64,000 nucleotides of DNA, from sequence record KP869111. The stretch is one strand, 5' to 3'. The notes under the pieces were generated by a model. The model did not search any database, was not told the DNA's origin, and was given only the letters and a program-made list of their open reading frames with translations. Position 1 is the stretch's first letter. Each line of letters opens with the position of its first letter. Source of the stretch: Escherichia coli O157 typing phage 13. The translations under genes and the position numbers were made by a program. This document shows positions 3,428 through 31,716 of this stretch, piece by piece.

Positions 3428-4711
3428 ATGAGTAAAATCCAAAAATTATTGCGTGAATCTACAACGTCTACTAGCAACTCAATTGGTCGCCCAAATCTCG
3501 TTGCTTTGACTCGCGCTACGACTAAATTAATATATTCTGACATTGTAGCAACACAAAGAACTAATCAACCTGTTGCTGCTTTTTATGGTATCAAATATCT
3601 TAACCCAGATAACGAATTCACATTTAAAACCGGTGCTACTTATGCTGGCGAAGTTGGATATGTAGACCGAGAAAAAATTACTGAACTCACAGAAGAATCA
3701 AAAGTCACACTAAATAAAGGTGATTTTTTCAAATATAATAATATCGTCTATAAAGTGTTAGAAGATACACCATTTGCAGATATTCAAGAAAGTGATCTAG
3801 AATTAGCTCTTCAGATTGCAGTCGTTCATTTAAAGGTACGGTTATTTTCAGATGCAGCGGTAACAAGCAAATTTGAAAGCTCTGATAGCGAAATTTCTGA
3901 TGCAAGATTCCAGATTAATAAATGGCAAACTTCAGTCAAATCTCGCAAACTTAAAACTGGTCTCACGGTTGAATTAGCGCAAGATTTGGAAGCGAATGGA
4001 TTTGATGCCCCTAACTTCTTAGAGGATTTGCTTGCTACTGAAATGGCTGATGAAATTAATAAAGATATTCTTCAGTCTTTAATTACTGTATCGAAACGTT
4101 ATAAAGTTACTGGAATTACTGACACCGGATTTATTGACTTGAGCTATGCATCCGCTCCAGAAGCAGGTCGTTCATTATATCGAATGGTGTGTGAAATGGT
4201 ATCACACATTCAAAAAGAGACAACTTATACTGCAACGTTTTGTGTAGCCTCAGCTCGTGCAGCTGCTATTCTTGCTGCTTCCGGTTGGTTAAAACATAAG
4301 CCAGAAGATGACAAGTATCTTTCACAAAATGCTTATGGATTCTTGGCAAATGGATTACCTCTTTACTGCGATACCAACAGTCCGTTAGATTATGTTATTG
4401 TTGGTGTTGTAGAAAATATCGGCGAAAAAGAAATTGTAGGGTCCATCTTTTATGCTCCATACACTGAAGGAGTAGATTTAGATGACCCGGAACATGTTGG
4501 TGCATTTAAAGTTGTAGTTGATCCAGAAAGCTTGCAACCGTCTATCGGATTATTGGTTAGATATGCTTTATCAGCAAATCCTTACACAGTAGCAAAAGAC
4601 GAAAAAGAAGCGAGAATAATTGATGGTGGGGACATGGATAAAATGGCAGGACGTTCAGACTTGTCTGTTTTACTCGGTGTTAAATTGCCTAAAATTATTA
4701 TAGATGAATAA
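3428..4711 (+). CDS. 24: capsid vertex protein gp24
   Basis: 427 aa, same length as T4 gp24; gp23 paralogue downstream of 23. Confidence 0.95.
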   Translation: MSKIQKLLRESTTSTSNSIGRPNLVALTRATTKLIYSDIVATQRTNQPVAAFYGIKYLNPDNEFTFKTGATYAGEVGYVDREKITELTEESKVTLNKGDFFKYNNIVYKVLEDTPFADIQESDLELALQIAVVHLKVRLFSDAAVTSKFESSDSEISDARFQINKWQTSVKSRKLKTGLTVELAQDLEANGFDAPNFLEDLLATEMADEINKDILQSLITVSKRYKVTGITDTGFIDLSYASAPEAGRSLYRMVCEMVSHIQKETTYTATFCVASARAAAILAASGWLKHKPEDDKYLSQNAYGFLANGLPLYCDTNSPLDYVIVGVVENIGEKEIVGSIFYAPYTEGVDLDDPEHVGAFKVVVDPESLQPSIGLLVRYALSANPYTVAKDEKEARIIDGGDMDKMAGRSDLSVLLGVKLPKIIIDE

Positions 4712-4722
4712 ACAAAAAAAAA

Positions 4723-4738
4723 GGGACCTTACGGTCCC
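4723..4738. terminator. bidirectional hairpin GGGACCTTACGGTCCC between gene 24 and rnlB
   Basis: stem-loop flanked by A-run and T-run between convergent genes. Confidence 0.65.
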
Positions 4739-4745
4739 TTTTTCG

Positions 4746-5744
4746 TTATGATACTAATTCAATCCATGCAGGACGCAGAACATCTTGCACCATTCGGACT
4801 AATTCTTTCTTAACAAGATTCGGATTATCGGATGATGTTAATACAATACCTTCACGAGAAGTTTCTTCCAGAATATCTTGAACAGTCAATCCCATCACTT
4901 TGCCAAAATCTTTTGGCGTTACAGTCCCAATCTTAGAAATCACATTATTAACACGGTTTAATGTAACATAACAAGCTAGGACATCAAGCAAGTTTTTGTC
5001 AATTTCGGTTAATGGAACCTGAGTTTTAATAGGCTTATCAGACTTTTTCTTTTCACTGAATTTAGAGTTCTTACACTTAATAGCTACACGAGTACCGTTT
5101 GGCAGCCATTTAGGGAAACAAGGCTTCAGAACATAACCTTCTGCTGTATTATCACCAATAACATTAGCATCAAATACGCAATTATTTGCTTCGACAAGGT
5201 CTTCTGACGCAGTAGCATTATAAGCGGCTAAGACGGAATCAAGGTCGTTTGGAATCATGATAAGAGCATCAAATGTGCCACGACCAAGCATTGGTGCCAT
5301 TTTAAAACCGAATTCATTACAGAAATCTTGCATTTCGTAATCAGTCAAATACGTATTATCACCACTTTCTGTATTGATAATGATATCGAACACATAAAAA
5401 TCTTTTTCACCGTAGTCAACACCTTTCTGGATTCCACCACCAGCGAATTCACCGAATACTTGATATGATACGGCTCGAGCTGTGTACATGAATTCCTGAA
5501 CGGCTTTAATAGCTTTATCATACTTCTTGAGTACGATTTCATAACCATAAAAATCTTCTGCTGGAAGAATAGGGCCTGTGCGCTTGGCGCATGTGACGTT
5601 GTCACGTTCAATAATTAAACTAAAGTTGGTCCCATGGATTTTCTCACGTGCTACCCAAACACCAGTAGTCAAACCATTAGTGTAGAGTTTTTCAATAAAC
5701 TTAGAGTTGTAGTGGTTTTCAAGACTGCTGTATTTCTTAAACAT
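4746..5744 (-). CDS. rnlB: RNA ligase 2 (Rnl2)
   Basis: 332 aa; KIHGTN nucleotidyltransferase lysine motif near N-terminus; T4 position after gene 24. Confidence 0.9.
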
Positions 5745-27169: not shown

Positions 27170-27293
27170 TTTAAATTCTCAATTCGAGATAATATTTAGT
27201 AGCCACGTTCGTCTGAATTTCACCTTCTTTCGACAGGTCTCTCAGTTGTAGGCTACCGCTTAGAAGAGTGTTCTCTTCATATAGTTATTTATA

Positions 27294-27626
27294 TCACTTA
27301 TAAAGACACGGAATAGCTTTATAGTGGCATGTTACGAATTTCTGTTTAATTTCTTTAGGTTGTTTAAGTCCCAAAGCCACAAATGGATGTGGAACATTTC
27401 GAATTTGTCCAACTGGTAGTGGAGTCAAATCACCGACTTCAACAAAACCTTCAGGAACATCAGGACCTACAGAATGAACTACACATAGTTCAGGAACTTC
27501 ACCTTGAACACGTTTACCGATCACAAGTCCTGATTCGGTAACTTCTTCATCACCTGCTTGAGCGGGTTCAGAAACCAGAATGACATATTCACCAACAGCA
27601 CGAATTGGGAGTTGTACTTCAGACAT
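27294..27626 (-). CDS. 31: co-chaperonin gp31 (GroES analogue)
   Basis: 110 aa; matches T4 gp31. Confidence 0.9.
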
Positions 27627-27683
27627 CTTATTTCCTTGTTGTTTGACGATAGATTAATAATACCATACTATTCGTAAAGCATA

Positions 27684-27981: not shown

Positions 27982-28563
27982 TTATTCACCACAAAAGTTT
28001 CGGATTTGTTCCCAATTCAGAGAACGAAGATTATTACGAGAGTACTGAATTACTTCAATACCGGCTTGTTTTAGAATGTCTGCCCAATTTTCAGGAGATC
28101 TGTCATATAATTCTGCGTATACAACCTTTTTAATACCTGACTGTGTAATAGCTTTAGTGCAATCAGGACATGGAGAAAGTGTCGTATACAACGTAGCACC
28201 TTCAATAGAATTACCTTTACGAGCTGCAAACAAAATTGCATTCAGTTCCGCATGGATTTCGTTATTAGCGGACCATGCACTATGAGCAGCCCGATGTTCT
28301 TTAGCCAAAACAAAATTATCCACCCGTCCAAATGCTGTAGTGCCTTCTTTATGCCCAGCAACGATGACCGGGCTTGGTTTATTCTTCAACCAACCGTTTT
28401 CGGATGCATGTTCACAACAGTTAACACCACCGGCCGGGCTACCGTTATACCCAGTAGAGATAATGCGTCCATCTTTTTCAATGACGGCACCAACTTTCCA
28501 TGAACAACATTTTGATTCTTGAGAAATCAAATAAGCAATTTGAAGATATGTGCTAGCTTTCAT
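27982..28563 (-). CDS. cd: dCMP deaminase
   Basis: 193 aa; HAELNAI and PCPDC zinc-binding deaminase motifs. Confidence 0.95.
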   Translation of the reverse strand: MKASTYLQIAYLISQESKCCSWKVGAVIEKDGRIISTGYNGSPAGGVNCCEHASENGWLKNKPSPVIVAGHKEGTTAFGRVDNFVLAKEHRAAHSAWSANNEIHAELNAILFAARKGNSIEGATLYTTLSPCPDCTKAITQSGIKKVVYAELYDRSPENWADILKQAGIEVIQYSRNNLRSLNWEQIRNFCGE

Positions 28564-29555
28564 TATTGAACCTTATTAATATAAGTTAACAGCTCTTTAG
28601 TTTGTTCCCAACTGATGCACGCATCGGTAACGGAAACGCCATAGGACATATTATCAGAAATTTTTTGATTTCCTTCATGTAGGAATGATTCTATCATAAT
28701 TCCTTTGACCAAATCATTAGCTGCTAAATTTTTACCAATACCAATTTGATTGCTATAATGCCCATCAGCGTTTGCATGGCTACAGTCAACCATTACATAA
28801 TGATTCAGACCTACTGCCCTTGCTTTGTTAGAAGCTTCTTGAATATCAGAAGAATGATAGTTCGGGCCGTTGGTCCCGCCACGCAATACGATATGCGTAT
28901 TCTGATTACCTTCAGCTTCAACAATGCCTACAGTACCATCGACGTCCATACCCATATACCGATGAGGCCAGGCGGCACTATACATCGCGTCTGTAGCTAC
29001 TTTAATAGAACCATTGGTTGCGTTCTTGAAGCCTACGCACATCGGTAGACCTGAAGCAATTTCACGATGTGTCTGACTTTCAGTCGTACGGGCGCCAATA
29101 GCAACCCATGAGAAAATACCAGAAAGATACTTAATCGTGAATGGGTCTAATACTTCAGTTGCTAATGGAAGTCCCATACGTAGAAGTTTACGACACAATG
29201 TTCGTGCAACTATAAGACCGTGGTTCATATCAAAACTTCCGTCAAGATATGGATCATTTACAAGACCTTTCCAACCTACGGTAGTTCGAGGCTTTTCAAA
29301 ATAAACGCGCATCACTAACAGAACATTAGGAAGACGAGTTTGAAGTTCAGCCAGACGTTTGCCGTATTCAACAGCAGCAATAGGGTCATGAATTGAACAA
29401 GGACCTACAACAATAAGTTTGCGTGGGTCTTCACCGTTCATAATCGAATTAACTTGTTCGCGATGAGAAGCCACTTGTGATGCGTAAGCTTCCGACAAAG
29501 GAATAATCTCAGCCAGTTCTTTTGGAGAAATAAGTTTTCCGACGACAGGTAACAT
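28563..29555 (-). CDS. 3-deoxy-D-arabino-heptulosonate-7-phosphate (DAHP) synthase, class I-alpha (AroG/AroF/AroH-like)
   Basis: 330 aa; GPCSIHDP, KPRTTVGWKGL, GARTTESQ, DCSHANA, ESFLHEGNQ and TDACI motifs in AroG-like order. Confidence 0.9.
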   Translation of the reverse strand: MLPVVGKLISPKELAEIIPLSEAYASQVASHREQVNSIMNGEDPRKLIVVGPCSIHDPIAAVEYGKRLAELQTRLPNVLLVMRVYFEKPRTTVGWKGLVNDPYLDGSFDMNHGLIVARTLCRKLLRMGLPLATEVLDPFTIKYLSGIFSWVAIGARTTESQTHREIASGLPMCVGFKNATNGSIKVATDAMYSAAWPHRYMGMDVDGTVGIVEAEGNQNTHIVLRGGTNGPNYHSSDIQEASNKARAVGLNHYVMVDCSHANADGHYSNQIGIGKNLAANDLVKGIMIESFLHEGNQKISDNMSYGVSVTDACISWEQTKELLTYINKVQ

Positions 29556-29675
29556 AACAATCCTTAGGAGATATAAACAGATTCTGATTCAACAATACCT
29601 TTAACCGGATTAGACAGGCTAAGTTGGTAGTGCTCAGATTTATGACCATTCTCGATAGTAATGAGATAGCTCTCA

Positions 29676-29912
29676 TTATAGTGTTCCATATACTCGAGTT
29701 GCTTCAACAAGACCATCACTGCCTAATTTAAGATTAGTAATTTGGTCACCATCTTTAGGATTAACGATTATGAGAAAAGAACGTGGAGATTCTTGAATAA
29801 CTCGTAATGTTGCATCTTGGAAACGTTCAGACACTTTATTGATGAGTGCTTGAGCAAATTCTTTTACTTTAATCTGAAATTCGTGTACTGTAATTGGGTT
29901 TTCACTTAGCAT
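29676..29912 (-). CDS. hypothetical protein, 78 aa
   Basis: ORF downstream of early promoter. Confidence 0.45.
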   Translation of the reverse strand: MLSENPITVHEFQIKVKEFAQALINKVSERFQDATLRVIQESPRSFLIIVNPKDGDQITNLKLGSDGLVEATRVYGTL

Positions 29913-29937: not shown

Positions 29938-29970
29938 GTTATAGTATCACAACTCCACCATGTTGTAAAC
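29938..29970 (-). promoter_or_regulatory. early-type promoter (GTTTAC box)
   Basis: GTTTAC, spacer, ATACTATA -10, followed by a GAGGAA Shine-Dalgarno. Confidence 0.5.

Positions 29971-30651: not shown

Positions 30652-30652
<1 letters not shown>
30461..30652 (-). CDS. hypothetical protein, 63 aa
   Basis: ORF immediately downstream of pseT. Confidence 0.4.

Positions 30653-31716
<1,064 letters not shown>

Follow-up and report, generated by a model that had tools for sequence, protein, structure and literature searches.

DAHP synthase (DAHP being the 7-phosphate of 3-deoxy-D-arabino-heptulosonate) controls carbon entry to the shikimate pathway (Herrmann and Weaver, as cited in PMC11845039). 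In AroG of Escherichia coli the substitutions P150L, S180F and F209A/S give feedback-resistant enzymes; the main chain of the bound inhibitor, Phe or Tyr, is held by hydrogen bonds from Q151/Q152 and S180/S181, and the inhibitor site is stabilised by a salt bridge from D155 (PMC9529685). The inhibitor cavity is built in part from the N-terminus of the partner subunit, and in yeast the residue equivalent to Q151 binds the inhibitor's amine (PMC10349828, where the P150L mutant and the role of Q151/Q152 are also covered). A phage DAHP synthase gene is already known as an annotation: the paper describing Kanagawavirus KLB31 names it and speculates on aromatic amino acid supply (PMC11845039), and ORF64 of phiC120 is the same annotated gene (PMC8022965). 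Here we consider the DAHP synthase gene at 28563..29555 (minus strand) in a 64,000-nucleotide stretch of E. coli O157 typing phage 13 (record KP869111), which we call the window and to which all positions refer. We favour, with moderate confidence and from comparative analysis of the sequence, the idea that this gene encodes a feedback-insensitive enzyme, made early in infection, that would feed the shikimate pathway of the host.

The open reading frame (ORF) starts with ATG and encodes 330 aa, matching exactly, in the ORF listing of the window, the span and length given in the original prediction, a first reading of the letters without database searches. Its assignment there to class I-alpha DAHP synthases held in profile searches, with matches to Pfam PF00793 (DAHP_synth_1; E=5.2e-75, 252 bits against a cutoff of 25.5), to the NCBIfam aroFGH equivalog TIGR00034 (427.7 bits, cutoff 173.2), to NF009395 (455 bits, above its cutoff of 343) and, over the full length of residues 1-330, to PHROG 5045 (E=3.2e-182). 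KDO8P (3-deoxy-D-manno-octulosonate 8-phosphate) synthase, or another member of PF00793, was considered and set aside, since the score lies 250 bits above the aroFGH equivalog cutoff and the protein has the KPRT motif.

All six motifs quoted in the original prediction are found, and all lie on the minus strand. GPCSIHDP (aa 51-58; 29382..29405) carries the metal ligand Cys53, equivalent to AroG Cys61; KPRT (aa 88-91; 29283..29294), invariant in both homologue alignments, carries Lys88 and Arg90, equivalent to Lys97 and Arg99 of AroG, which bind substrate phosphate; GARTTESQ occupies aa 154-161; and the remaining metal ligands His260, Glu289 and Asp311 lie in DCSHANA (aa 257-263; 28767..28787), ESFLHEGNQ (aa 289-297; 28665..28691) and TDACI (aa 310-314; 28614..28628), respectively. 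Thus the metal tetrad C61/H268/E302/D326 of AroG corresponds by residue alignment to C53/H260/E289/D311 of the phage protein, again invariant in both homologue alignments, and the residues that bind phosphoenolpyruvate (PEP) and erythrose-4-phosphate (E4P), R92/K97/R99/R165/K186/R234 in AroG, are all conserved as R83/K88/R90/R156/K177/R225. Over 25 phage-clade sequences, which diverge down to 56% identity, every catalytic residue is retained. An AlphaFold2 model built from 37 homologues (predicted local distance difference test score, pLDDT, 89.5; predicted template-modelling score, pTM, 0.90) retains the beta6a/beta6b hairpin insertion of the (beta/alpha)8 barrel (strands 198-203 and 209-214), and Foldseek matched it at template-modelling (TM) scores of 0.94-0.96 to the solved Neisseria meningitidis, E. 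coli and yeast DAHP synthases. By family and by active site, then, the predicted phage protein is an intact class I-alpha DAHP synthase, and we infer that it would condense PEP and E4P to DAHP.

The regulatory site is where the phage enzymes depart from their bacterial relatives. We compared alignment columns between the 25 phage-clade sequences and the 96 nearest bacterial sequences, keeping a column if it was at least 90% conserved in both groups. Of 104 columns so conserved only six differ between the groups (in AroG numbering P150I, Q151K, D155G, S180P, F209Y and T223A), and five of these six are among the eight conserved positions tied by the literature to feedback inhibition (hypergeometric P=3.6e-6). 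In the window, the codons of Ile141-Lys142 (29130..29135, minus strand) stand in for AroG Pro150-Gln151 of the inhibitor-binding loop, and that of Pro171 (29043..29045, minus strand) for AroG Ser180/AroF Ser181, which contacts the inhibitor main chain. Gln151 is kept in all 95, and Ser180 in 94, of the 95 nearest bacterial homologues.

The N-terminus is altered as well. Only the seven residues MLPVVGK (29535..29555, minus strand) precede the conserved core, compared with 14-16 in AroF, AroG and AroH, so that AroG Asp6/Asp7 and AroF Asn7/Asn8 have no counterpart in the phage protein. This shortening is general, with 5-9 residues before the core in 24 of 24 phage homologues and at least 13 in 95 of 95 bacterial ones. 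It is not a matter of a misplaced start, as the ATG is the first start codon after a stop and upstream extension of the ORF is impossible. Residues 1-10 form a coil in the AlphaFold2 model. As read from these alignments, the feedback pocket has been rebuilt while the catalytic core is intact. This rebuilt site, which we take to be the gene's most informative feature, was not noticed in the original prediction.

An AroG-type enzyme aligning end to end with bacterial AroG had originally been predicted, and neither description survives closer comparison. Identity of the phage protein is 51% to AroF, 47% to AroG and 44% to AroH (distances 0.77, 0.87 and 0.98); the best match in the PDB is AroF (6agm, E=5e-105, as against E=4e-91 for AroG); and the scores for the AroG equivalog NF006723 (363 bits, cutoff 568) and the AroH model NF009396 (386 bits, cutoff 463) are both below cutoff. 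At the position that separates Tyr-type from Phe-type enzymes (AroG Ser211/AroF Gly212) the phage has Gly (G202), and at AroG Met147/AroF Pro148 it has Pro (P138), both AroF-type; overall, the AroG pocket Met147/Pro150/Gln151/Ser180/Phe209/Ser211 becomes Pro/Ile/Lys/Pro/Tyr/Gly. The sub-cutoff equivalog score, the lower identity than to AroF and the different pocket residues rule out assignment to AroG, and the accurate label, on sequence, is the AroF-like lineage of class I-alpha. Nor is the alignment end to end: phage residue 8 pairs with AroF residue 17, the N-terminus being some 9-11 residues shorter than those of AroF and AroG, there are internal deletions of 5 aa and 3 aa, and the C-terminus is about 9 residues shorter than that of AroF.

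This closeness to AroF raises the alternative that the protein is an ordinary Tyr-regulated AroF-like isozyme, whose only gain to the phage would be extra dosage after host transcription shut-off. Besides AroF being nearest by identity and by PDB match, the AroF-type Pro and Gly (at AroG 147 and 211) and the beta6a/6b hairpin are kept, and the pocket residues are under purifying selection. Nevertheless, three contacts to the amino-acid moiety of the inhibitor are lost (Gln151 to Lys, Ser180 to Pro, and the absent Asn7/Asn8 segment); substitutions at the lost-contact sites in AroG give feedback resistance; and the nearest bacterial homologues are almost uniform in keeping Gln151 and Ser180. We therefore regard ordinary Tyr regulation as rather unlikely.

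Several points do weigh against the reading that we favour, of a functional, early-made and feedback-insensitive enzyme. Across 121 more diverse class I-alpha representatives (50%-identity clusters), 64 keep Q151 and 73 keep S180, 21 have Pro at 180, 5 have Lys at 151, and some N-termini are short; by this comparison the regulatory site is the labile part of the class I-alpha family generally. We had considered the Lys151/Pro180 pair as a signature unique to phages, and this fails against the same diverse representatives, as the positions vary family-wide, a result that made us less confident. The replacement residues are themselves conserved in 24-25 of the 25 phage-clade sequences (96-100%), which agrees better with a pocket that still works, for another ligand or as structural support, than with simple loss. 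It may also be that all six changes derive from one ancestral event, in which case the counts given above are not independent. The gene is also dispensable, an accessory in Mosigvirus, the genus to which the window belongs by its identity to typing phages 3 and 6 (see below), since RB69 and about 10 other Mosigvirus records are without the cassette that carries it. Finally, full-text searches of the literature turned up no experimental work on the function of any phage DAHP synthase, be it on activity, inhibition or expression.

The conservation of the new residues allows a further alternative, that the remodelled pocket binds another effector (among the candidates a carboxylate, for instance chorismate or prephenate, and a metabolite linked to nucleotide synthesis in the phage), so that the enzyme would be re-regulated and not deregulated. 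That Ile, Lys, Gly, Pro, Tyr and Ala are held at 96-100% in a clade diverged to 56% is in keeping with this, as are the Lys in place of a neutral hydrogen-bond acceptor and the constant location of the gene beside or near cd, whose product is an allosteric enzyme according to the T4 annotation. Against these, the ligand is hypothetical, the conservation could instead reflect structural coupling to the active-site loops, and the positions often vary within the family; we judge another effector to be unlikely. A more specific form, to which we give slightly less credence still, is of an anciently fixed regulatory variant (Ile-Lys loop, Pro171, Tyr200, Gly146, Ala214 and no N-terminal lid) that would be blind to aromatic amino acids and would sense an infection-relevant metabolite, coupling the supply of chorismate, of aromatics or of folate precursors to the early nucleotide programme.

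Whatever its regulation, the gene has been in phages for a long time. Among the best database matches are 24 proteins of 319-343 aa at 56-98% identity, of which the named ones are all from phage, and the bacterial proteins among those matches (341-388 aa) reach at most 55%. In a neighbour-joining tree the phage group was a clade in 200 of 200 bootstraps. The gene has a GC content of 0.413, and of 0.296 at third codon positions (GC3), near to those of neighbouring phage genes, whereas E. coli aroF has 0.518 and 0.504. Kanagawavirus, Marfavirus and Bragavirus have it in the same slot, with pseT upstream of it and cd downstream, making four genera with Mosigvirus, and its divergence tracks that of cd, with DAHP synthase/cd identities to those genera of 77/79%, 68/77% and 58/62%. 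The ratio of nonsynonymous to synonymous substitution rates (dN/dS) is 0.14-0.20 against the three other genera; within Mosigvirus, the window and phi25-307 have only 8 differences, too few for dN/dS. Taken together the clade, the composition, the shared slot, the cd-like divergence and the dN/dS values support long residence of an old, phage-only lineage under purifying selection, and the AT-rich, phage-like composition and long residence proposed in the original prediction are both borne out. Recent capture from a host is excluded by the ceiling of 55% bacterial identity, the GC3 of 0.30, the phage-only clade and the divergence tracking cd. A decaying, functionless passenger gene might be suspected from its dispensability, given its absence from RB69 and the ten or so other Mosigvirus records. 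However, the low dN/dS, the retention of catalytic residues in 25 sequences diverged to 56%, and an intact ORF in 212 phage records make decay scarcely credible.

How early the enzyme would be made can be judged from the signals upstream. A candidate early promoter at 29941..29969 on the minus strand (TTTACA, 17-nt spacer, TACTAT, with an extended TG) sits between the cd.3 and cd.2 homologues, like the T4 early promoter Pe133295, with which it aligns, and it was aligned with RB69 as well. It is probably an early promoter, and the nearest upstream candidate to serve cd.2, a small ORF, the DAHP synthase gene and cd. A sequence scan from this promoter to the DAHP synthase start found no terminator-like site, MotA box or late TATAAATA box, and a Shine-Dalgarno-like AAGGA (29561..29565, minus strand) lies 5 nt before the DAHP synthase ATG, overlapping the stop of the upstream small ORF. 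Because the early promoter is conserved, no terminator, MotA box or late box intervenes and a Shine-Dalgarno-like element is present, the four genes are best read as a predicted early co-transcribed unit. Co-transcription with cd had first been proposed on the strength of an ATGA overlap. That overlap is not there, the sequence reading TAATG with a single shared nucleotide at 28563; the gene does lie directly upstream of cd, and at their junction no promoter or terminator match was found save one weak sigma-70-like match (9/12) spanning it, so that the proposal keeps its substance if not its original ground.

Other promoter-like elements were noted in the window at large. The late-promoter core TATAAATA occurs in 15 copies over the whole window against 7.2 expected, a number reached in none of 100 shuffles, and one copy (27286..27293, minus strand) lies directly downstream of gene 31 and ahead of rIII. 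Upstream of gene 31 (27294..27626) is a MotA-box-like TATGCTTTA followed by a TAnnnT -10 element (about 27650..27683, minus strand), which is consistent with a predicted middle promoter of this co-chaperonin gene.

We propose that the feedback-insensitive DAHP synthase would act in infection as follows. Lying in the early-transcribed nucleotide-metabolism block, behind a T4-type early promoter and abutting cd, the gene is expected, because of that early block and conserved promoter, to be expressed soon after infection. Host Tyr, Phe and Trp would be unable to shut off the phage enzyme, as its pocket is remodelled and the N-terminal segment that closes the pocket is gone. Being transcribed by the phage, the gene would also escape both TyrR/TrpR repression and host transcription shut-off. 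Carbon could then keep flowing to chorismate and on to aromatic amino acids for phage protein synthesis, and the phage would in effect be performing the manipulation that metabolic engineers carry out with aroG(fbr) and aroF(fbr) alleles (fbr, feedback-resistant). The step from a deregulated enzyme to a benefit for the phage is one that we infer.

Other products of the pathway could be what matters. Chorismate is the precursor of p-aminobenzoate (pABA) and folate, and the benefit might lie chiefly in pABA and thence folate for frd and td, and not in aromatic amino acids; the same block has the genes for dihydrofolate reductase and thymidylate synthase, besides nrdAB and cd. Location is, though, a weak guide here, in a slot that is hyperplastic (holding unrelated small ORFs in T4 and empty in RB69); the annotation of the genome portion examined shows neither pab nor fol genes, nor any further gene of the shikimate pathway; and folate is needed in catalytic amounts, little beside the flux that a deregulated DAHP synthase would give. 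We consider a folate benefit improbable. More improbable again is that the enzyme serves to drain PEP and/or E4P, rewiring central carbon with its products irrelevant; diversion of the two substrates was, with aromatic amino acid supply, one of the functions suggested in the original prediction. Marine phages do carry central-carbon auxiliary genes, which is the sole point in its favour. An E4P drain would, however, take carbon from the pentose pool needed for nucleotides, and the residues for productive catalysis are all conserved, in an enzyme that is the normal entry to the pathway. We return to aromatic amino acid supply, by an early-made and feedback-insensitive enzyme, as the role that we favour.

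The gene is part of a discrete cassette. On the minus strand, and between cd (dCMP deaminase; 27982..28563, by ORF and family match), whose start overlaps the DAHP synthase stop, and pseT (30652..31551), as the original prediction had placed it, the interval also holds four conserved small ORFs (the cd.2-cd.4 region). Upstream of the DAHP synthase gene are the cd.2 homologue (DUF7320; 29676..29912, minus strand), recognised by family match and comparison and 96% identical to RB69 Cd.2, and a 41-aa ORF (phrog_15876; 29564..29689, minus strand; annotated as 50 aa from a GTG at 29719), which repeats, in diverged form, the C-terminal half of Cd.2. Its identity to the C-terminus of a Kanagawavirus (Entb_45) cd.2 homologue is 51%, and the full cd.2 adjoins it. 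Together, small ORF and DAHP synthase gene make up a cassette of 1094 bp (28567..29660, minus strand) that is absent in RB69, of the same genus, where the cd.2 stop overlaps the cd start: in a blastn comparison with RB69 the flanks are about 97% identical and the cassette is unmatched. About 11 Mosigvirus records, RB69, JK36 and moha included, have this empty site, against about 139 with the cassette. T4 has no DAHP synthase and, at the equivalent position, carries an unrelated cd.1, of which no homologue was found in the window; the gene is thus outside the T4 set, as had been supposed.

An imperfect direct repeat of 13 nt, ATAATGA(A/G)AGCTA, which is the stop/start junction sequence, bounds the cassette. 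Its upstream copy, ATAATGAGAGCTA (29667..29679, minus strand), and its downstream copy, ATAATGAAAGCTA (28554..28566, minus strand; the DAHP synthase stop and cd start), match at 12 of 13 positions, and it is possible that such repeats are substrates for gain or loss of cassettes at gene junctions. The 41-aa ORF looks like a recombination scar, its reading frame still open, of importing a donor cd.2 3' end together with the DAHP synthase gene from a different T4-like phage; or it may be RB69 that lost the cassette, through recombination between the repeats. The records of vB_Eco_mar005P1 (LR027383-LR027391) have an empty cd.2-cd site, and Mosigvirus mar005p1 (OZ035759) gives matches in two separated places, as if with the cassette; this could be a presence/absence polymorphism inside one named species.

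As to how widely such genes occur, the 2.4-kb region is 100% identical to that of E. coli O157 typing phages 3 and 6 (Straboviridae, Tevenvirinae, Mosigvirus), and in RefSeq NC_041863 (typing phage 3) the identical gene is annotated aroF (FDG79_gp028), 'phospho-2-dehydro-3-deoxyheptonate aldolase'. A tblastn search with the phage protein found 212 phage records encoding DAHP synthase with the ORF intact. About 139 of these are Mosigvirus-like records at 95% identity or more, followed by Enterobacter and Edwardsiella Kanagawavirus at 77%, Klebsiella, Serratia and Erwinia phages at 66-69% and Proteus Bragavirus at 58%. The novelty implied in the original prediction is accordingly lost, the gene itself adding nothing new to the databases; its description as an auxiliary metabolic gene agrees with the category of PHROG 5045, 'moron, auxiliary metabolic gene and host takeover'.

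Outside this group, Aeromonas phage HJ05 (OQ594355), an unrelated phage of 79 kb, encodes a DAHP synthase of 387 aa at 3899..5062, annotated 'hypothetical' and 38% identical, with a long His-rich N-terminal extension. At the positions discussed above it has Q151H, S180P, P150A, D155P and F209V, which we count in favour of the reading preferred here, and it is probably an independent acquisition. We had also considered as an independent phage example the 'Acinetobacter phage MD-2021a' contig CAKLQH020000056, and discarded it; its aroF lies beside cobS, a histidine phosphatase and an alpha-ribazole phosphatase, and it looks like bacterial chromosome mislabelled as phage. A 'Bacteriophage sp.' faecal contig, unverified and unannotated, was likewise left aside. 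Among the class I-alpha representatives, the best match, P0121 (799 aa), aligns with the query in two stretches and appears to be a metagenome tandem or fused double DAHP synthase; several others, of 600-770 aa, suggest fusion architectures. Public labels around the locus are noisy: cd is called 'ribD/riboflavin biosynthesis protein' or 'tRNA-specific adenosine deaminase', the 31.1 homologue 'tail fibers protein', and one HX01 neighbour 'olfactory receptor-like protein'.

Two further ORFs overlap the locus, one of 100 aa antisense to the DAHP synthase gene (28746..29048, plus strand) and one of 55 aa in an alternative frame (29509..29676), and both were dismissed, as neither had family matches. 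A strong antisense sigma-70-like match within the gene (28731..28759, plus strand; TTTACC, 17-nt spacer, TATAAT, TG; 10/12), overlapped by the 100-aa ORF, is probably a chance match.

The interest of the locus is that lytic T4-like phages of enterobacteria have retained, over a long evolutionary time, the enzyme that guards entry to the shikimate pathway. Should this enzyme prove feedback-insensitive, it would be a clear case, and a non-marine one, of a phage overriding host metabolic control at the entry to a pathway, and would offer a ready-made, natural feedback-resistant DAHP synthase for the engineering of aromatic compounds. The natural presence and absence of the gene within one genus (O157 typing phage 3 and RB69) provides a convenient comparison.

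Considering the known systems to which this locus is closest, the window gene is itself a member of the PHROG 5045 phage aldolases, such as those of KLB31 and phiC120 (ORF64), with the same slot, the same clade and no substantive difference. AroF (PDB 6agm/6agl) shares its fold, its metal ligands and its substrate ligands with the phage enzyme, which differs in being without the first 9-11 or so residues, including Asn7/Asn8, and in changing Gln152 to Lys, Ser181 to Pro, Pro151 to Ile, Phe210 to Tyr, Asp156 to Gly and Thr224 to Ala. AroG (PDB 1kfl/1qr7) likewise has a class I-alpha fold (TM 0.95), and its catalytic residues are those of the phage enzyme; at 47% identity it is further away, the phage having Gly for Ser211 and Pro for Met147.

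PhzC is a type II DAHP synthase. As described in PMC8772962, it is found in phenazine gene clusters and resembles the phage enzyme in being an additional, pathway-dedicated DAHP synthase, there supplying most of the flux; it differs in being distinct from aroF/aroG/aroH, and bacterial, in a biosynthetic cluster and not in a virus. The engineered feedback-resistant alleles (aroG P150L, S180F, F209A/S and D146N, and aroF(fbr)) offer a further likeness, in that the phage changes fall at 150, 180 and 209, in addition to Q151 and D155, and that by analogy the same outcome, unrestrained carbon entry into the shikimate pathway, would be expected. The phage changes differ from these alleles in being natural and multiple, in using other residues (Ile, Pro, Tyr, Lys and Gly) and in being combined with a truncated N-terminus.

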